Shown here: positions 2,803 through 51,044 of the stretch, in pieces
Layout of the letters: the number at the start of each line of letters is the position of its first letter
How positions within the stretch are numbered: the first letter of the stretch is position 1
Made by a program: the position numbers and the translations under genes
The notes under the pieces: model-generated
The model's database searches: none
What the model was told of the DNA's origin: nothing
What the model saw: only the letters and a program-made list of their open reading frames with translations
Source: Escherichia coli
GTDB lineage: Bacteria > Pseudomonadota > Gammaproteobacteria > Enterobacterales > Enterobacteriaceae
Assembly (NCBI RefSeq): GCF_044324875.1
Contig: NZ_CP172185.1
Strand: one strand, 5' to 3'
DNA length: 64,000 bases

Positions 2803-3426
2803 TTAATCCAGTTGCGTAATATCAAAAGCGGCGCGGTCGATCACCGCAATGATCTTTTTTATCTGCGCATCAGTGATATCGCTCTGGTTGACGCGTAAAT
2901 CCAGCACCGCTTTAAAATTATCCAGTGCCCGCTTCATTTGCGGGTTCTGGCGGAGTGCAGCACCAACGCAACGCGCTTTGATGCGTTCTTCAATCATCTC
3001 TACCTGTTCGCGGTTTTCTTCCAGCCACTGCGCGCCTTGTTCGGTCAGCGCAATCTGCTTCTTACCACCTTCCTCTTCGCGGATGGTAATCAGAGACTGC
3101 TCCTGCAGAAAATCCAGCGTTGGGTAGATGACGCCCGGGCTTGGGGTGTAATTCCCCTGGGTCAGATTTTCAATCGCTTTAATCAACTCGTAACCGTGGC
3201 TGTCATCGCGCGAGAGAATATCCAGAATCACCAGACGCAATTCACCGTGACCAAAGAAACGCTGCCGACGACCGCCGCCGCGACCGTGGCGACCACCGCA
3301 GCATTGACCGTGTTCATGCTGGTGACCGTGTCCGCAGTGCTCATGTTCTGACTTCTCACCTTTGCAGCAGCCTTCATGGCGTGGCTGGCCTTCATGTTTA
3401 CAACACCCTTCGTGATGATGGCTCAT
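2803..3426 (-). CDS. yqjI: PadR-family transcriptional repressor with His/Cys-rich N-terminal metal-binding region
   Basis: 207-aa ORF; N-terminus MSHHHEGCCKHEG...HEHCGHGHQHEHGQCCGG followed by a PadR-like winged-helix region; divergent from yqjH. Confidence 0.9.
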   Translation of the reverse strand: MSHHHEGCCKHEGQPRHEGCCKGEKSEHEHCGHGHQHEHGQCCGGRHGRGGGRRQRFFGHGELRLVILDILSRDDSHGYELIKAIENLTQGNYTPSPGVIYPTLDFLQEQSLITIREEEGGKKQIALTEQGAQWLEENREQVEMIEERIKARCVGAALRQNPQMKRALDNFKAVLDLRVNQSDITDAQIKKIIAVIDRAAFDITQLD

Positions 3427-3631: not shown

Positions 3632-3650
3632 ATGATTAACAATCATTATC
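3632..3650 (+). promoter_or_regulatory. Fur-box-like site in the yqjH promoter region
   Basis: ATGATTAACAATCATTATC; the 3' ten bases AATCATTATC match the Fur consensus GATAATGATAATCATTATC exactly. Confidence 0.5.
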
Positions 3651-3663
3651 ATTTACGAAATTT

Positions 3664-3702: not shown

Positions 3703-4467
3703 ATGAATAACTCCCCCCGCTACCCGCAGCGCGTTCGCAATGATCTGCGCTTCCGTGAATTGACTGTGCTACGCGTTGAGCGTATTAGCGTCGGTTTTCA
3801 GCGCATTGTCCTTGGCGGCGAGGCGCTGGACGGTTTTACATCGCGCGGCTTTGACGATCACAGCAAACTCTTCTTTCCTCAATCTGATGCTCACTTTGTG
3901 CCGCCAACGGTAACGGAAGAGGGCATCGTCTGGCCGGAAGGACCACGCCCACCGTCGCGTGACTATACGCCGCTGTATGACGAACTACGCCATGAACTGG
4001 CGATTGATTTCTTTATTCACGAAGGTGGCGTCGCCAGCAGCTGGGCAATGCAGGCGCAACCGGGCGATAAACTCACGGTGGCAGGTCCGCGCGGTTCGCT
4101 GGTGGTGCCAGAGGATTACGCGTATCAGCTGTATGTCTGCGATGAATCCGGAATGCCCGCACTGCGCCGCCGCCTGGAAACGTTGAGCAAACTTGCCGTT
4201 AAACCGCAAGTTAGCGCGCTGGTTAGCGTGCGGGATAACGCCTGTCAGGATTATCTCGCGCACCTTGATGGTTTTAATATCGAATGGCTGGCACATGATG
4301 AGCAGGCAGTAGATGCGCGTCTGGCGCAGATGCAAATCCCTGCCGATGATTACTTCATCTGGATAACCGGCGAAGGCAAAGTCGTTAAGAATTTAAGCCG
4401 CCGCTTTGAAGCGGAACAGTATGACCCACAGCGGGTACGTGCAGCGGCTTACTGGCACGCAAAGTAA
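3703..4467 (+). CDS. yqjH: Siderophore-interacting ferric reductase (FAD-binding, NAD(P)H-dependent)
   Basis: 254-aa ORF with SD GAAGG; siderophore-interacting protein family features; divergent from yqjI with Fur-like and palindromic sites between them. Confidence 0.9.
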   Translation: MNNSPRYPQRVRNDLRFRELTVLRVERISVGFQRIVLGGEALDGFTSRGFDDHSKLFFPQSDAHFVPPTVTEEGIVWPEGPRPPSRDYTPLYDELRHELAIDFFIHEGGVASSWAMQAQPGDKLTVAGPRGSLVVPEDYAYQLYVCDESGMPALRRRLETLSKLAVKPQVSALVSVRDNACQDYLAHLDGFNIEWLAHDEQAVDARLAQMQIPADDYFIWITGEGKVVKNLSRRFEAEQYDPQRVRAAAYWHAK

Positions 4468-13732: not shown

Positions 13733-13938
13733 GGCAACTCCAGTTTCTGTATTTGTCTGGAAAAATTAACCGTCACAAACTACCACTAAAAATGTGGTTT
13801 TATATTTTTTGCCACCGTGAATATGTAATTAACAGTTCGTGAATCAACGCGAAAATAAGAATGAATATTGCGCCAGAGCAGGGAATGGCAATGTTTTGCG
13901 AAATACACTGCGCTTATCACAACTGCGGATAATTAACG

Positions 13939-43851: not shown

Positions 43852-45993
43852 TCAAAATTCCATTTTCACCGTGAATTGCACTTCACGCGGATCGCCAATC
43901 TGATTCCCCAGATTATTTGTGGCGATGGAAGAGGTGTAATACGTTTTATCAAACAGTTTTTTGACGTTTAATTGCAGTGTGACCGGATACTGCAATTTCA
44001 TTTTGTATGCGGCGAAGGCATCGGCAACGAAATAGCCTGGCAGATAATAGTCAGCCCCATTGGTTGCCGAACGACGGCTTACGCCATGTCCACCACCGCC
44101 AAACGTCAGTGTGTTATTGCCTGGCATGTTATGAATGTCATAGGTCAGGAATAGCGAACCGGTATGACGAGGAACATTCGGCAATGGTTTCCCTGCATAA
44201 TCAGGATCTTCCAGAACCTTAGCATCGGTATAGCCGTAGCTGGCAATGATATTAATGTTTTCAGTTAATGCTCCCGCAAGGTCGACTTCTACCCCTCTTG
44301 AACGAACGCGGCCTGCCGTTTTGGCGATGGTTTCATCACCAATACTTTCGGTATACAACACGTTACGTTTATGGATATCAAACAGCGCAATATCTGCGGT
44401 TATACCATCGAACAGCTCGAATTTTGCCCCGACTTCGTAAGCATTAGATGATTCCGGTGGAAGATCTCCGATGTAGCTGGCAATTGACGATTGCGGCATA
44501 AATGTTTGCGAATAATTAGCAAATAAGGATACCGATGGCGTCAGTTTGTAGACTAACCCCAGTTTGGGCGTCCATTGTTCATCGCGGCTGTCAGTATTGA
44601 CATTAAAAGGACGGCCTTTACCCGCATACTGCGTGTAATACTGATAGCGGATCCCGGCGACGGCAATCCAGTTATCGGTCAGATAGAGCGCGTCCTGTGC
44701 ATACGCTGAGTAGCTCTCCTGTTTGATCGTCTGATCGCTGTCCGACGCCGAGACAGTTGTGCATTTGCTGGTATTGCCGTAAACAGGGTTGTAGATATTG
44801 AAATCTTTAGCGTTTTTACAGCGAATCATATCTGTGCGCAGAAGATCATAATATTCATATGACACCCCACCCAGAATCTCATTATAGAACCCAGCAATAT
44901 CAACATTCCCTTGCAGATCCGCACGAGTAGCATGCATACGCTGGGTAGATCCCTGAGTTGCATCAACACGCCGTGTCAGCGTTCCTGTCGTTGCATCATA
45001 CGCGGTAACACGAGCCTGATTATCGCCGTATTTATCCTGGCTGTAGCTGTAATCAAAGCGCGCTGTCCACTGGCTATTGAGATGATATTCTGCGTTGAGT
45101 TGCGCCAGATCGGACTGACCATCTGTAATATTAAACGGTTCGTCAAAACGTATTTTTCGATCAACGTTTACGGGCTGTTTCGTCGTAAGGTCGAAAATCG
45201 TTCCACGATCGAACGGAGTTTTATAATCCCGATGGGAATAGAGCATGGTTACTGTTGCATTATCACCAAACCAGGTGAGTGATGGGGCAATAAATGTACT
45301 GCGCTCTTTACCAAAGTTTCGCCAGTAATCTTCATCCTGCACTTCCCCGGTAAGGCGATACGCCAGTTGAGTGCCTTCAATGGGGCCAGTGATATCAAGT
45401 TGCCCGGTGCCACCACCGAAACTGGAGGACGTGGCTGAGACAGAACCATGGAATGTTTTTTCCGGGCGTTTGGTCACGACGTTAATCAATCCACCAGGAT
45501 CGAGAATGCCATACAGCGTGGAGGCCGGGCCTTTTAGCACTTCCACACGTTCTGTGGCGGCGTTGAAACTGCGAGGAAGTACAGTTCGCAGGCCGTTGGT
45601 CATGATGGAGCCATCCCGGTTAGCACCAAACCCACGACGTACAAAGGCGTCCTGAGTTCCGCCTAATGTATTGGTCTGTACCACGTTACTGACGTTATAA
45701 AGCGCTTCATCCAGCGTCGTTGCATTCTGATTTTCCAGAACCTGATCGCTAACCGTATTGACCACCTGCGGGATATCCAGCATCGGCATATCGGTTAATG
45801 TCGCCGTGGAGGTGCTCAGAGGTTGATAACCATCGGTTGCTTCAGTTGCGGTATTTGCATCTGCTGTAACAGTGATTGTTTCGCCATCTTTGGTCGTTAC
45901 AGAGTCTGTTGCATGAATCATCGGTGCCGCAAAAAGCAGTGAAAAGAGCGCCCGACCTTTGAGTCCTGAGAATGAAGGTGTGAACATAGCCAT
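43852..45993 (-). CDS. TonB-dependent outer-membrane receptor (siderophore-type)
   Basis: 713-aa ORF with signal peptide, plug region and a beta-barrel ending in the aromatic C-terminal residue (...FTVKMEF). Confidence 0.85.
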   Translation of the reverse strand: MAMFTPSFSGLKGRALFSLLFAAPMIHATDSVTTKDGETITVTADANTATEATDGYQPLSTSTATLTDMPMLDIPQVVNTVSDQVLENQNATTLDEALYNVSNVVQTNTLGGTQDAFVRRGFGANRDGSIMTNGLRTVLPRSFNAATERVEVLKGPASTLYGILDPGGLINVVTKRPEKTFHGSVSATSSSFGGGTGQLDITGPIEGTQLAYRLTGEVQDEDYWRNFGKERSTFIAPSLTWFGDNATVTMLYSHRDYKTPFDRGTIFDLTTKQPVNVDRKIRFDEPFNITDGQSDLAQLNAEYHLNSQWTARFDYSYSQDKYGDNQARVTAYDATTGTLTRRVDATQGSTQRMHATRADLQGNVDIAGFYNEILGGVSYEYYDLLRTDMIRCKNAKDFNIYNPVYGNTSKCTTVSASDSDQTIKQESYSAYAQDALYLTDNWIAVAGIRYQYYTQYAGKGRPFNVNTDSRDEQWTPKLGLVYKLTPSVSLFANYSQTFMPQSSIASYIGDLPPESSNAYEVGAKFELFDGITADIALFDIHKRNVLYTESIGDETIAKTAGRVRSRGVEVDLAGALTENINIIASYGYTDAKVLEDPDYAGKPLPNVPRHTGSLFLTYDIHNMPGNNTLTFGGGGHGVSRRSATNGADYYLPGYFVADAFAAYKMKLQYPVTLQLNVKKLFDKTYYTSSIATNNLGNQIGDPREVQFTVKMEF

Positions 45994-46366
45994 TTAGTCT
46001 GTTATCCCAAAAACTCGCGGATTGTCGCGAGTGAAAATTGTTTCTTATTGCTCACTAAGCACTATCCGTTTGTTATTTCGCCATCGGATATGTAATTGAG
46101 AATCATTCAATCATGCGGTAATGTAGTAGTAAATGAGAAATAACAAAAAATTGCTACATGTGTTTTTATGAGAGGTTAATGCAATTCAATTGATGGTAAT
46201 TTATTAATATTTAATGATTTTATTTTTATCTTTAAAAAAATTTCACCTGTTATTTACCTTGTTTTTGTATGGCTTTTAACTTCTTGACTACTACATTTTG
46301 TGGCGTCAAACTCTCAAAGGAGAATGAGTTTTATTTTTGTTTGTCTTTGATTAAGTTGGCGTACAC

Positions 46367-47176
46367 GTGGCACATAACGCAAAAGGGCAGGGGCTGATCC
46401 TCGACAATGTTTCTGCCGGGTATCACAAGAAAATCATTGTTGATGGTGTTTCTTTCTCCGTTCCCACAGAAAAAATGACCGTTCTGGTTGGGGCAAACGG
46501 CTGTGGAAAGTCGACGTTGCTCAGCACCATTGCACGTATCTTGCAACCTATGGGCGGCTCGATATTGCTGGATGGTAAAGCGATTCACGAGCAACCAACG
46601 AAAGCGTTATCCCGTAGACTTGGGATCTTGCCGCAGTCGCCATTATTGCCGGAGGGCTTAACCGTTTATGAACTGGTGTCGCGTGGGCGTTTTCCCTGGC
46701 AGAATTTCATTCGTCAATGGAGCGACGCCGACGAGCAGGCGGTAGAAGAGGCCCTGAAATTAACCGGTACGCAGGAGTTTGCACATTTACCTGTTGAAAA
46801 ACTTTCTGGTGGGCAGCGCCAGCGTTGCTGGATTGCGATGGTGTTGGCGCAAAAGACGCCTTATATCCTACTGGATGAACCCACAACCTGGCTTGATTTA
46901 CGTTATCAGGTTGAAATTCTTGAGTTATTACATGATTTAACGCGTCATCACGGGCGTACAGTCGTCGTGGTGTTGCATGATCTGAATTTTGCCGTCAATT
47001 ATGGTGATACGTTGATATTTTTACGCCAGGGGAAAGTGGTGCGTGTGTTGAATGAGGGGGAGCATTGCACGCCTGAGCTGGTAAAAGCTGTCTTTGACGT
47101 TGATGTTCACGCATCAATAAATCCTCTGACGGGAAAGCCGTTCTTCATGCCGTTTCGTGGTGTAGAAAAAGTATGA
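46367..47176 (+). CDS. ABC transporter ATP-binding protein (iron-siderophore / FepC-FecE type)
   Basis: 269-aa ORF with Walker A GANGCGKST, signature LSGGQRQR and Walker B ILLDEPT; the start codon is GTG in the track and is uncertain. Confidence 0.85.
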   Translation: MAHNAKGQGLILDNVSAGYHKKIIVDGVSFSVPTEKMTVLVGANGCGKSTLLSTIARILQPMGGSILLDGKAIHEQPTKALSRRLGILPQSPLLPEGLTVYELVSRGRFPWQNFIRQWSDADEQAVEEALKLTGTQEFAHLPVEKLSGGQRQRCWIAMVLAQKTPYILLDEPTTWLDLRYQVEILELLHDLTRHHGRTVVVVLHDLNFAVNYGDTLIFLRQGKVVRVLNEGEHCTPELVKAVFDVDVHASINPLTGKPFFMPFRGVEKV

Positions 47177-48156
47177 TGCGCACAGGGCTGGTTACTGTAA
47201 TTTTCCTCGCCTTACTGCTGGTGGGATGCGTGGTATATCCAGGGATTGGTGCCCGATTTATTGCACCACAAACGGTGTTGCAGGCATTTCTTCATTTTGA
47301 TCCGCAAAACTTCGATCACAACGTAATTGTAAGACTCCGTTTGCCGCGTTTAGCGGCAGCATTGCTTACCGGTGCTTCTCTTGGAGTTGCTGGTGCTTTG
47401 TTGCAGGCTGTCATTCGTAACCCATTGGGGGAGCCACATATTTTAGGCTTAAATGCCGGAGCCGCTCTTGCTGTCGTTGCTGCCAGTGCGCTTGGGCTGG
47501 CCTTTCCGGTTGGACGCCCACTGCTGGCATCTACGGGCGGCGCGTTATTGTTCCTGTTGATATTGCTGCTTTCCTCCGCAGGGCGTTCAGGGTTAACGCC
47601 AATGAAAGTTACTTTATGCGGCGTGGCGCTATCGGCGTTCGTGTCCTCAATAACGGCTGCAATCCTGATTCTTGACGAACAAACACTGCTGGCGATGCGG
47701 ACATGGCTAGCAGGTGATTTAGCGGGGCAGGATTGGGCGACGCTGGGTACGTCCGCCTGGTTTTCTCTGGGGGGATTTGTGTTAGCCCTTTACCTTGCAC
47801 CCTCCCTTAACATGTTGGCACTGGGCGATCGCATGGCGCAGGGGCTGGGCGTCTCTGTACTCCGCACGCGAACATTCACCCTGCTTGCGATCGCGTTGCT
47901 CTGTGGCGCAGCCGTATCGATTGCTGGCCCCATTGGTTTTGTCGGCCTGCTAGTACCGCAGATTGTCCGGCGTCTGGTATCAGCGGATCTGCGCGTTCTG
48001 CTCCCTCTTTCAGCTTGTGTCGGCGCGCTTTTGTTATTACTGGCAGATATTATTGCCCGGACGCTTTTCACGCCCCATGAGTTAGCGACCGGTGTCATGA
48101 CGGCGTTAGTTGGTGCGCCTGTTTTTGTCATTATGGCGACGAGGATGTTCAAATGA
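47173..48156 (+). CDS. ABC transporter permease, FecCD family
   Basis: 327-aa polytopic membrane ORF with the FecCD-family signature; ATGA overlap with the upstream ATPase stop. Confidence 0.85.
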   Translation: MMRTGLVTVIFLALLLVGCVVYPGIGARFIAPQTVLQAFLHFDPQNFDHNVIVRLRLPRLAAALLTGASLGVAGALLQAVIRNPLGEPHILGLNAGAALAVVAASALGLAFPVGRPLLASTGGALLFLLILLLSSAGRSGLTPMKVTLCGVALSAFVSSITAAILILDEQTLLAMRTWLAGDLAGQDWATLGTSAWFSLGGFVLALYLAPSLNMLALGDRMAQGLGVSVLRTRTFTLLAIALLCGAAVSIAGPIGFVGLLVPQIVRRLVSADLRVLLPLSACVGALLLLLADIIARTLFTPHELATGVMTALVGAPVFVIMATRMFK

Positions 48157-49202
48157 GTCGGATAATGAACGTCGGGCTACGCCCACTACGTGTTGGTAAG
48201 TTTTCGACACTGGTACGCCCTAAAAATCTGGTGTTGCTTGGTGGGTTGTTTCTGTTTGCGGTTGGAATACTGATATTCGGTCTGATGCAGGGTTCTTTCT
48301 CCGTCCCGGCATCGGAAGTAGGACGAGCATTGTTCTCTCCAGAAAACGTAAGCACAGACGCACGTTATATTGTGCAGGATATTCGCTTGCCGAGAGTCAT
48401 CATGGCATTGCTATGCGGGGCCATGTTAGGTATGGCGGGGGCCGCGATGCAATCCATTGCGCGTAACGGCCTTGCCGATCCTGGTTTAATCGGCGTCAAA
48501 GAAGGATGTAGCGTGGCGGTGCTGTGGCTGATTTTCCAGTTTCCAATGCTGGGAATGTTCTGGCGTCCAGTGGCTGGTCTTGCTGGTGGCTTGTTGGTGG
48601 CTTTAATCGTGATTTTTTGTGCGCGCGATATTTCCCGCCCGCGATTTGTTCTGATTGGTATTGGTGTTTCCTGGTTTTTCGCCGCCGGTATCGGTGTATT
48701 TATGACCACTGCAGATGTTCGAGATGTACAAACTGCATTGATGTGGTTATCGGGAAGCCTGCATGCAGCTAACTGGATGTTAGTCGGTATTTCAGCCTGT
48801 TGGATGTTGCCAGCCGCTCTTTTATTGCTGTTCACCGCCAGGGCGGCGGATATCGCTCTGCTTGGTCATCAGGTTGCAACCGGGTTAGGGGTGAATAGTT
48901 CTCGTCTGGCGTTGTTACGTGTCGCCGCACCCATAATCCTGACAGCCGTCTGCGTTTCGTGTGTTGGTAACATCGGTTTTGTCGGATTGATAGCACCCCA
49001 TATATCACGTTTTATTCTACGTGGCGGGCAGACGACATTACTGCTGGGGAGCGCCGTATCGGGGGCGTTGTTAGTCATCCTGGCGGATAGCATTGGTCGT
49101 TTGGCTTTTTTGCCTTTGCAACTGCCTGCCGGAATCATTATTTCATTGATTGGTGGACCATTCTTTTTGCTACTGCTCTGGCAGCGCAGGAACAGTTTTT
49201 AA
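48153..49202 (+). CDS. ABC transporter permease, FecCD family (second copy)
   Basis: 349-aa polytopic membrane ORF; ATGA overlap with the first permease. Confidence 0.85.
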   Translation: MSRIMNVGLRPLRVGKFSTLVRPKNLVLLGGLFLFAVGILIFGLMQGSFSVPASEVGRALFSPENVSTDARYIVQDIRLPRVIMALLCGAMLGMAGAAMQSIARNGLADPGLIGVKEGCSVAVLWLIFQFPMLGMFWRPVAGLAGGLLVALIVIFCARDISRPRFVLIGIGVSWFFAAGIGVFMTTADVRDVQTALMWLSGSLHAANWMLVGISACWMLPAALLLLFTARAADIALLGHQVATGLGVNSSRLALLRVAAPIILTAVCVSCVGNIGFVGLIAPHISRFILRGGQTTLLLGSAVSGALLVILADSIGRLAFLPLQLPAGIIISLIGGPFFLLLLWQRRNSF

Positions 49203-49212
49203 TGGGAGTTAT

Positions 49213-50160
49213 ATGCGTTTATTTTTTTCTCTGCTGATACTGTTGTCATTCTTTGCCCGCGCGACAGAACCTGTTCAGGTCTTTACTGATGATTTAGGGC
49301 GCAAAGTCACTGTTCCTGCTCATCCAAAGAGAATTGTCTCTTTACACGATCTTGATATCACTATTCCTCTGATTGAGCTCGGTGTACCTCCTGTCGCCAG
49401 CCACGGGCGAACCCGGCCTGACGGTAGCCATTTCATTCGATCAGGCGCGTTATTGACAGGTGTCGACTTTGATAATTCATCGATCGCTTTTATTGGCACC
49501 GCTGATATTGATATTGAAGCGATTGTGGCGGCAAAACCTGACCTGATCATCACAGAACCGACCCGTAATACGCCCATTGAACAACTGGAAAAAATTGCGC
49601 CCACGGTGAGCATTGATCATCTCAAAGGAGGCGCGCCAGAAATCTACCGCAAGCTGGCAGAACTTACAGGAACGCAGTCGCAGCTGGCGATACTTGAACG
49701 CCGCTATCAGGCACAAATCAATGCGCTGAAGGCGACGCTGGACAGCCAAAAAATAACGGTATCGGTGATTCAGGCAAATCAGGGAAAAATTAATGTGATG
49801 CATAGCTATCATTCGCTGGGGCGGGTATTACGCGATGCTGGTTTTCGCTTTCCGCCGCTGATTGAGAGCATTCCTGAAGGTGGGCGAATGGATGTGAGCG
49901 CAGAGCGTTTACCTGAACTGGATGCCGATTTTGTTTTTGCAACCTGGCGCGGTGACACCGGTGGTAAACCTCAGGATGAGCTGGCAGCAATGGAAAAAGT
50001 CATGCCGGGATGGTGTCAGTTTCTGACGGCCTGTCGTTCCGGGCGCTATGTGCTGATTTCTCGTGAAGAGGCGATTTCTAACTCCTTTGCATCTCTGGGG
50101 CTGATGGCTGCGCAGATACAATCACAAATTGCGGGACGACCTCTACCGGAGGCTAAATGA
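49213..50160 (+). CDS. Periplasmic substrate-binding protein (FhuD/FecB-like)
   Basis: 315-aa protein from the ATG at 49213 with SD GGGAG and signal peptide MRLFFSLLILLSFFARA; the track ORF start at 49150 overlaps the permease. Confidence 0.8.
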   Translation: MRLFFSLLILLSFFARATEPVQVFTDDLGRKVTVPAHPKRIVSLHDLDITIPLIELGVPPVASHGRTRPDGSHFIRSGALLTGVDFDNSSIAFIGTADIDIEAIVAAKPDLIITEPTRNTPIEQLEKIAPTVSIDHLKGGAPEIYRKLAELTGTQSQLAILERRYQAQINALKATLDSQKITVSVIQANQGKINVMHSYHSLGRVLRDAGFRFPPLIESIPEGGRMDVSAERLPELDADFVFATWRGDTGGKPQDELAAMEKVMPGWCQFLTACRSGRYVLISREEAISNSFASLGLMAAQIQSQIAGRPLPEAK

Positions 50161-51044
50161 TCCAGAAAGACAAAACGCGGGTTGATATTTATGGTGAGCG
50201 TTTTCGCACTCGCGCGAGTCAGTTAACGCCTGGGTTAAGAACTGTCGCAAGCTACATTAATGAGCATCGTGAAGTGGTACTCGAGCAAACGGCGATGGAA
50301 ATTGCGGCCACGTTGAACACTTCCGATGCCACAGTTATCAGGGCTATACAGGCTCTGGGGTTTGCCGGGCTGCGTGATCTGAAACGCACTCTGGAACAGT
50401 GGCTTGGTCCAGCCCTTAGTTCCAGCGAAAAGATGTCTACGACGGTGAGTAACTTGACGAGCGATGTTAACACCGCAATCGACTTTGTTCTTGAAGGGCA
50501 TTTGTATACTTGTAATGTCCTGTCAGAGCCTGAAAACCGCCACGCGCTTGCGCAAGCTGTAGCGTTGTTGGTGCAGGCACGGCAAGTCGCTATTTTTGGC
50601 ATTGGCGCTTCGGGTATCCTGGCGGACTATACCGCACGACTATTCAACCGCATAGGTTTGCCTGCCACGGCACTAAACCGTACGGGTATTGGCCTTGCCG
50701 AGCAACTGATCGCGCTTCAACGTGGCGATGTTCTGATCATGATGGCGCAAAAATCTGCGCACCGGGAAGGGCTGACAACGCTTCGTGAGGCGAGGCGGCT
50801 GGGGATCCCTGTTATTTTGCTGACAAACGCGCTGGATTCACGTTTTAGCAAAGACGCCAGTATCGTGATTCATGTTCCGCGCGGGGATGAAAAGGGGAAA
50901 ACGCCACTACATGGTACGGTATTGTTGTGCCTGGAAATGATTGTTTGGTCGGTGGCTTCCGCGATGCCGCAGCGTGCGGTTAAAACCATTAAGCGAATTA
51001 ACGATTTCCATCGGGGTTTGAAAACGGGAAGAAAGAATGGCTAA
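50157..51044 (+). CDS. RpiR/MurR-family transcriptional regulator (HTH_6 plus SIS domain)
   Basis: 295-aa ORF with N-terminal RpiR-type HTH and a SIS sugar-phosphate-binding fold; ATGA overlap with the binding-protein stop. Confidence 0.8.
   Translation: MIQKDKTRVDIYGERFRTRASQLTPGLRTVASYINEHREVVLEQTAMEIAATLNTSDATVIRAIQALGFAGLRDLKRTLEQWLGPALSSSEKMSTTVSNLTSDVNTAIDFVLEGHLYTCNVLSEPENRHALAQAVALLVQARQVAIFGIGASGILADYTARLFNRIGLPATALNRTGIGLAEQLIALQRGDVLIMMAQKSAHREGLTTLREARRLGIPVILLTNALDSRFSKDASIVIHVPRGDEKGKTPLHGTVLLCLEMIVWSVASAMPQRAVKTIKRINDFHRGLKTGRKNG

Follow-up and report, generated by a model that had tools for sequence, protein, structure and literature searches.

The fit iron-uptake system of Ouyang and Isaacson is the closest described relative of the locus analysed here. 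Its fitA-fitB intergenic DNA is a bidirectional promoter for both genes, and iron represses promoter fusions of fitA and of fitB constructed from it; such fusions are induced approximately 3-fold under iron deprivation and, as promoter-lacZ fusions of the spacer, still respond to iron without FitR (PMC2593036). In the same study, fitA was derepressed 23-fold in a fur mutant independently of FitR, purified FitR shifted a 347-bp intergenic fragment in EMSA, the site not being localised within the fragment, and Fur and FitR were described as independent repressors of fit with multiplicative derepression figures of 23-fold, 2.2-fold, and 52-fold; Fur-Fe2+ repression was cited there as unpublished work, and the exact Fur and FitR binding sites were still to be identified as of 2008 (PMC2593036). 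We found nothing on operator mapping in the wider literature on the fit operon, and no mention of the fit locus, by gene or protein-family name, in the Fur pan-regulon ChIP-exo paper and its supplements.

Three other comparisons are useful. The K-12 fepA-fes, fepB-entC, and fepD-entS regions resemble fit in that a short spacer between divergent siderophore genes carries GATAATGATAATCATTATC-type sites of 19 bp. The predicted fit sites are weaker (10.7 to 12.1 bits versus 16 to 19.5 bits leave-one-out for those three regions) and, unlike them, combine one good half (GAGAAT) with a poor second half and are accompanied by a second, pathway-specific repressor. That repressor, FitR, shares its HTH_6 plus SIS architecture with the RpiR-family regulators RccR and HexR of Pseudomonas, which target carbon metabolism, whereas the fit target is an iron transporter. 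RccR binds pseudo-palindromes with TGTAGT/ACTACA half-sites separated by linkers of differing length (PMC5489143). The fit spacer contains exactly these hexamers, but in a 37-bp spaced pair and as single boxes over −35 hexamers rather than in the 15- or 28-bp palindromes of RccR. The fecABCDE system of E. coli has also been compared with fit, since expression of either depends on iron limitation, acting through Fur, together with a signal specific to the system (PMC2593036). The fec operon is controlled positively, by FecA-FecR-FecI surface signalling, whereas the additional regulator of fit is a second cytoplasmic repressor whose sensor domain is of the sugar-isomerase type.

The DNA studied here is a 64,000-nucleotide stretch of E. 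coli sequence (the window), to which all coordinates refer. Its gene order runs from tolC-nudF-yqiB-cpdA-yqiA-parE through an island (43852-51044) to ygiN-mdaB-qseCB, the island being inserted exactly between parE and ygiN, two genes that are adjacent in K-12. It holds a receptor gene divergent from genes for an ATPase, two FecCD permeases, a binding protein, and the RpiR/SIS-type FitR. Judged by gene order and domains, this receptor/ABC block is the fit iron-uptake island, fitA being divergent from fitBCDE-fitR (gene names from PMC2593036).

43852-45993, minus strand: fitA, TonB-dependent siderophore receptor, 713 aa (ORF; Pfam Plug and TonB_dep_Rec_b-barrel; NCBIfam TonB-siderophor; RefSeq annotation of the near-identical strain MEW).
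46367-50160, plus strand: fitB (ATPase, GTG start), fitC and fitD (FecCD permeases), and fitE (periplasmic binding protein) (ORFs, Pfam, RefSeq annotation).
50157-51044, plus strand: fitR, RpiR/MurR-family repressor with HTH_6 and SIS domains (Pfam, NCBIfam; function per PMC2593036).

The gene set, gene order, and bidirectional promoter spacer are the same as those of the published system, with no system-level difference. Of 5426 complete E. coli genomes, 1873 (approximately 34%) carry the island at 95% identity or more, O157:H7 among them, and one copy is plasmid-borne.

The initial annotation had proposed 2 weak Fur-like segments in the divergent promoter, each matching 11 to 12 of the 19 consensus positions. 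Counting consensus matches proved uninformative as a discriminator because 103 positions in the window reach at least 12/19. We scored the 373-bp fitA-fitB spacer with a 19-bp Fur matrix built by consensus-seeded iteration from 18 K-12 Fur promoter regions (fepA-fes, fepD-entS, fepB-entC, fhuA, fur, fiu, fhuE, tonB, cirA, exbB, feoA, ryhB, sodA, fecI, fecA, fhuF, sufA, and bfd). The same 2 sites emerged as the top matches in the spacer, and both score above background with this matrix from validated Fur targets.

46092-46110, plus strand: Fur-like site A (GTAATTGAGAATCATTCAA), proposed Fur operator of PfitA (10.7 bits; within the conserved block 46090-46113).
46320-46338, minus strand: Fur-like site B (AAAAATAAAACTCATTCTC; GAGAATGAGTTTTATTTTT on the plus strand), proposed Fur operator of PfitB (12.1 bits; within the conserved block 46316-46340).

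Site B is the best match and site A the second best. The third match, at 46326-46344 (9.0 bits), shares bases with site B, and the best site independent of both (46034-46052) reaches only 7.1 bits. In 5000 dinucleotide shuffles of the spacer, a best score of at least 12.1 bits was seen with a probability of 0.035, and a second non-overlapping score of at least 10.7 bits with a probability of 0.002, so that the pair arises in approximately 0.2% of shuffles. In a further 164 kb of E. coli DNA, a score of 10.7 bits was reached at only 7 positions. One of them, at 3638-3656 in the window (15.5 bits), served as an untrained control and lies between an ORF for a PadR-family regulator (2803-3426, minus strand, 207 aa) and a reductase-like ORF (3703-4467, plus strand, 254 aa), a pair that from gene order and size we take to be yqjI/yqjH, a known Fur target. 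The leave-one-out best scores of the 18 training promoters ranged from 6.5 to 19.9 bits, and 4 of these bona fide Fur promoters scored below 10.7 bits, so that the fit sites, although weak, lie inside the range covered by real Fur sites.

The positions of the sites needed some correction. The segment AATTGAGAATCATTCAATC does lie at 46094-46112, as had been reported, but the best Fur register begins two bases leftward, at 46092-46110. The second segment, GAGAATGAGTTTTATTT, is likewise present, but at 46320-46336; it had been placed 8 bases off, at 46328-46344, an interval that reads GTTTTATTTTTGTTTGT. The consensus counts hold for 46092-46110 (12/19) and 46320-46338 (12/19 on the plus strand and 13/19 on the minus strand) but not for the literal register 46094-46112, which by hand count matches only 8 of the 19 positions.

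A strong side match in the window is GAAAATAAGAATGAATATT at 13851-13869 (17.1 bits), above either fit site, in the ttdA-ttdR spacer. It adjoins ttdA, which encodes L-tartrate dehydratase, an Fe-S enzyme, and we know of no report of Fur control at ttdA-ttdR.

To follow the spacer across genera, we collected 75 loci with a FitR-based scan and sorted them into 2 architectures by tblastn of all six Fit proteins. Architecture 1, with fitA divergent from fitBCDE-fitR, occurs in Escherichia, Enterobacter, Kosakonia, Citrobacter, Klebsiella, Raoultella, Kluyvera, Erwinia, Rosenbergiella, Acerihabitans, and Xanthobacter. In architecture 2, found in Pantoea, Serratia, Rahnella, Tatumella, and others, a different receptor (approximately 36% identity to FitA) is divergent from fitR alone. 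Erwinia sp. JUb26 and Pantoea coffeiphila carry approximately 3 kb of extra DNA between fitE and fitR, and the genes there could point to the ligand of FitR.

When 22 spacers of architecture 1 were aligned, sequence and length proved divergent except in five near-invariant blocks: TGTAATTGAGAATCATTCAA (site A), TGTAGTAGTAAA, CTTGACTACTACA, a CA..AT hexamer 17 bp past TTGACT, and AAAGAGAATGAG..TTATTT (site B). The two best matches of a matrix trained on K-12 alone thus coincide with 2 of the 5 phylogenetic footprints, and the sites are kept, linked to iron genes, in orthologous promoters of approximately 10 enterobacterial genera. Among 8 Escherichia sequences, SNPs occur elsewhere in the spacer and none falls in site A or site B. 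Site A is invariant across genera at 19 of 19 positions and is identical in 40 of 66 loci, the remaining variants mostly showing changes in the 5′ flank only or a GAGAAT to GATAAT or GATTAT replacement. Its central 10 bp (GAGAATCATT) equal the log-odds consensus of the matrix. Site B is more variable, with its core AAAGAGAATGAG..TTATTT kept; it scores 13.4 to 16.7 bits in Erwinia, Kosakonia, and Enterobacter chuandaensis, forms a near-perfect palindrome in Rosenbergiella (GAGAATGAGAGTCATTCTT), and reaches only 3.5 to 4.9 bits in Kluyvera. Variants nearer the consensus were found in other genera (AATAATGAGAATCATTCAA, 12.4 bits; GATAATGAGATTTATTTTT, 15.5 bits; one site B, 16.7 bits). Per-position conservation compared with the information content of the matrix gave a rho of 0.46 for site A, similar in shifted registers, and a rho near 0 for site B.

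Other regulators were considered for site A. By inspection, an FNR/CRP-type TTGA-N6-TCAA site was rejected because the spacing present here is N7, and the consensus sequences of Zur, MntR, and NikR likewise do not fit. A HexR-like TGTAAT half-site was rejected because positions 2 and 3 vary (GCAATT, GGAATT, GTTATT) while the GAGAAT core is constant.

The remaining footprints outline 2 predicted divergent promoters and the boxes that we assign to FitR.

46284-46289, plus strand: predicted −35 hexamer TTGACT of PfitB, inside O3.
46307-46312, plus strand: putative −10 hexamer CAAACT of PfitB, 17 bp after TTGACT (from conserved columns).
46133-46128, minus strand: −35-like TTTACT of PfitA, inside O1.
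46113-46105, minus strand: candidate extended −10 of PfitA, TGaTTGAAT, 17 bp after TTTACT (sequence reading; TG and TTGAAT conserved).
46122-46133, plus strand: FitR box O1, TGTAGTAGTAAA, unchanged in every genus, Xanthobacter included; the −35-like TTTACT of PfitA lies within it on the minus strand.
46153-46158, plus strand: FitR box O2, GCTACA, conserved in Escherichia; with O1 it forms TGTAGT-N25-GCTACA, a 37-bp span.
46284-46295, plus strand: FitR box O3, TTGACTACTACA, invariant in all 22 aligned spacers and in Xanthobacter; its first six bases are the predicted −35 TTGACT of PfitB.

The PfitB −10 follows the pattern CA(A/T)N(A/C)T in all enterobacterial genera (CATGAT, CAATAT, CAAAAT), with A2 and T6 always kept, and site B would extend from approximately +1 to +20, just past this −10. 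The PfitA −10 is uncertain because the candidate has no usual A at −11; an alternative, AATGAT, is separated from the −35 by 20 bp. All −10 candidates that can be paired with TTTACT are located within site A, which on this reading would span the −10 region to approximately +7 of PfitA. A sigma-70 scan of the spacer detected neither of the conserved promoter candidates, its sole match being a non-conserved promoter-like site at 46246-46217 on the minus strand. The promoter geometry appears plausible. A small perfect palindrome in the AT-rich middle of the spacer, CAATT-C-AATTG (46182-46192), is probably insignificant since it is kept only in part of Escherichia.

The TGTAGT/ACTACA-type boxes O1, O2, and O3 are likely the FitR operator. 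O1 and O3 form the arms of a 13-of-14 inverted repeat (I2), and inverted half-sites of this type accompany the regulator gene: next to a FitR orthologue the boxes never vary, in both architectures and in one alphaproteobacterium. The O1-O2 spacing recurs in 24 of 26 architecture-2 loci, where the box starts 23 nt past the 8-mer GTAGTAGT, and another ACTACA-type box follows approximately 155 to 183 nt further on (approximately 90 nt in three short spacers). Overall, 52 ACTACA-type boxes were observed at the fixed positions compared to 7 expected.

Four dissociations, the identity with the RccR half-sites among them, led us to assign the TGTAGT/ACTACA boxes to FitR and the GAGAAT blocks to Fur. 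In Xanthobacter and a related MAG (FitR 53% identical), TGTAGTAGTAAA and TTGACTACTACA are exact, while GC-rich, unrelated sequence occupies the positions of sites A and B. Iron control in the Xanthobacter lineage is not known to proceed via a gamma-type Fur box, and the absence of both sites is what we would expect there, although it counts as one evolutionary event only. The receptor promoter of architecture 2 retains site A and GTAGTAGT at the same 31-nt offset, and the fitR-proximal promoter has an ACTACA box without a Fur-like site (median best score −3.7 bits; 2 of 26 loci at 8 bits or more). For the Fur-like site of the architecture-1 PfitB, the median score is 10.9 bits, and 28 of 40 loci reach 8 bits or more (PfitB versus PfitR, Mann-Whitney p = 6e-8, for loci that are not phylogenetically independent). 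High scores at PfitB and low scores at the regulator-only PfitR suggest that the Fur-like sites go with the transporter genes and not with the boxes of the regulator. The initial proposal of weak Fur-like sites at this divergent promoter is supported by this pattern, by their rank in the matrix scoring, and by their place among the cross-genus footprints.

The predicted transcribed part of the spacer on the fitA side appears to be structured.

46009-46032, minus strand: GC-rich hairpin (stem ACTCGCG/CGCGAGT) of the fitA 5′ leader with a U-run after it, immediately preceding the ribosome-binding region (RNA fold).
46063-46090, minus strand: stem P1 (UAUCC...GGAUA) at the 5′ end of the fitA leader (RNAalifold).

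Within Escherichia, the hairpin shows compensatory G:C to A:T changes, and one variant pairs (G.U) on the minus-strand RNA only. Other genera have a hairpin of different sequence at the same place in the leader. Among the 5 base pairs that RNAalifold gave for P1 from 19 leaders, 4 show compensatory changes on both sides; P1 was the only element recovered in this way because MAFFT misaligned the divergent hairpin. An automated count of hairpins followed by a U-run flagged 1 of 40 leaders; the counter was poorly designed, and the hairpins are visible by eye. A terminator scan of the spacer called no terminator, the leader hairpin included, and an Rfam scan of the spacer gave no match, only a sub-threshold plant miRNA that we regard as noise. 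The hairpin is possibly an attenuator or a translational control element.

On the other side of the spacer, E. coli fitB has a GTG start without a recognisable Shine-Dalgarno sequence, and most other genera have a longer GC-rich fitB leader that ends in GGAG-N-ATGCCACAG. An AAGGAG-A-ATG sequence conserved inside site B could open an upstream ORF of 8 codons (ATGAGTTTTATTTTTGTTTGTCTTTGA), and in Kluyvera its ATG is in frame with fitB. Translation of such an upstream ORF is doubtful because the spacing between the Shine-Dalgarno sequence and the ATG is 1 nt.

We consider it likely that sites A and B are Fur operators of PfitA and PfitB, and 2 alternatives have to be weighed against this prediction. 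The simpler of them, that the matches are functionless chance products of an AT-rich intergenic region, draws on the consensus counts of only 12 to 13 of 19 positions, common as such counts are in the window, and on the 3.5% of shuffles with a single match as good as site B. The rarity of both matches together argues against it, and it is contradicted by the conservation data, both sites lying in blocks kept across approximately 10 genera and in the 8 Escherichia sequences while their flanks vary; we regard it as very improbable. The more serious alternative accepts the conserved blocks as functional and makes their resemblance to Fur sites the coincidence: they would be core-promoter or initial-transcribed elements, or the outer part of an extended FitR operator, and Fur would act at another position in the spacer or by an indirect route such as RyhB or the structured fitA leader.

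Several observations speak for this second alternative or against Fur operators. The scores are modest, that of the Kluyvera site B is poor, and site A is more invariant than the degenerate specificity of Fur alone requires. Site A also stands at a fixed 31-nt offset from a FitR box in more than 60 loci, including those with the different receptor family, so that it could belong to the promoter or to a larger FitR operator; its excess invariance and constant association with the box mean that it may be constrained mainly as promoter DNA or as a composite operator. Every plausible PfitA −10 is contained in it, the agreement between conservation and the information content of the Fur matrix is unconvincing, and the structured fitA leader leaves room for post-transcriptional control. 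On the other hand, the published spacer fusions are transcriptional and iron-responsive, with the 23-fold effect on fitA in the fur mutant (PMC2593036), and yet the best independent site elsewhere in the E. coli spacer scores only 7.1 bits, the 9.0-bit match being an overlap with site B. Xanthobacter and the architecture-2 PfitR promoters retain FitR boxes but lack the blocks, an RpiR-type operator is already explained by the TGTAGT/ACTACA half-sites, and the match between the centre of site A and the matrix consensus would have to be fortuitous. We judge coincidental resemblance to be unlikely, though far less so than chance.

Under the preferred reading, in which sites A and B are Fur operators, the 373-bp spacer would contain 2 divergent sigma-70-type promoters, each with 2 independent repressors. 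Fur-Fe2+ on site A (46092-46110) would cover the −10 region and the start of PfitA, and on site B (46320-46338) it would sit just downstream of the PfitB −10, blocking initiation or escape at both promoters when iron is plentiful. FitR would bind the TGTAGT/ACTACA half-sites (46122-46133, 46153-46158, and 46284-46295), overlapping both −35 hexamers, and would presumably be released by a ligand of its SIS domain. With two repressors per promoter, full expression would need both low iron and the FitR signal (an AND-type control), a model that fits the published multiplicative derepression (PMC2593036). The Fur and iron dependence, the repression by FitR, and its binding to the intergenic fragment are taken from the literature; the matrix scores, the conservation, and the distribution of the sites over the loci are results of this analysis, and the bases touched and the promoter positions are those that we infer here. 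Iron control alongside the RpiR-type regulator, which the initial annotation had suggested, is supported by the iron-repressible fit fusions and by the response of fitA to loss of fur (PMC2593036).

A broader reading of these data is possible, although we lean against it as a whole: the spacer may be a portable dual-repressor cassette, with a multiply read site A, a control layer in the leader, and an SIS regulator gating siderophore uptake. Its layout may be a Fur-like box, 12 bp, TGTAGTAGTAAA, N19, ACTACA, approximately 130 bp, and a second ACTACA-containing promoter, and it may have been reused with 2 unrelated TonB-dependent receptor families in Enterobacterales, Alphaproteobacteria having a version for FitR alone. 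RNA polymerase, Fur, and possibly FitR would then all read the same stretch of DNA at site A, which would account for its invariance, the terminator-like hairpin in the structured fitA leader would add a third control layer, and a sugar-sensing SIS-domain regulator would gate the uptake of siderophores.

Fur control of fit was already known, nothing at this locus departs from standard Fur-box repression, and the analysis does not change what is known of iron regulation. What it adds is incremental and predictive in kind: candidate operators at base level, RccR-like half-sites for FitR, the apparent reuse of the module, and a structured fitA leader. The positions give point mutations with which the iron signal could be separated from the FitR signal, and they offer a route toward the ligand of FitR and the substrate of the fit system. 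Together, these results suggest a promoter design common to many Enterobacterales and shared with a second receptor family.
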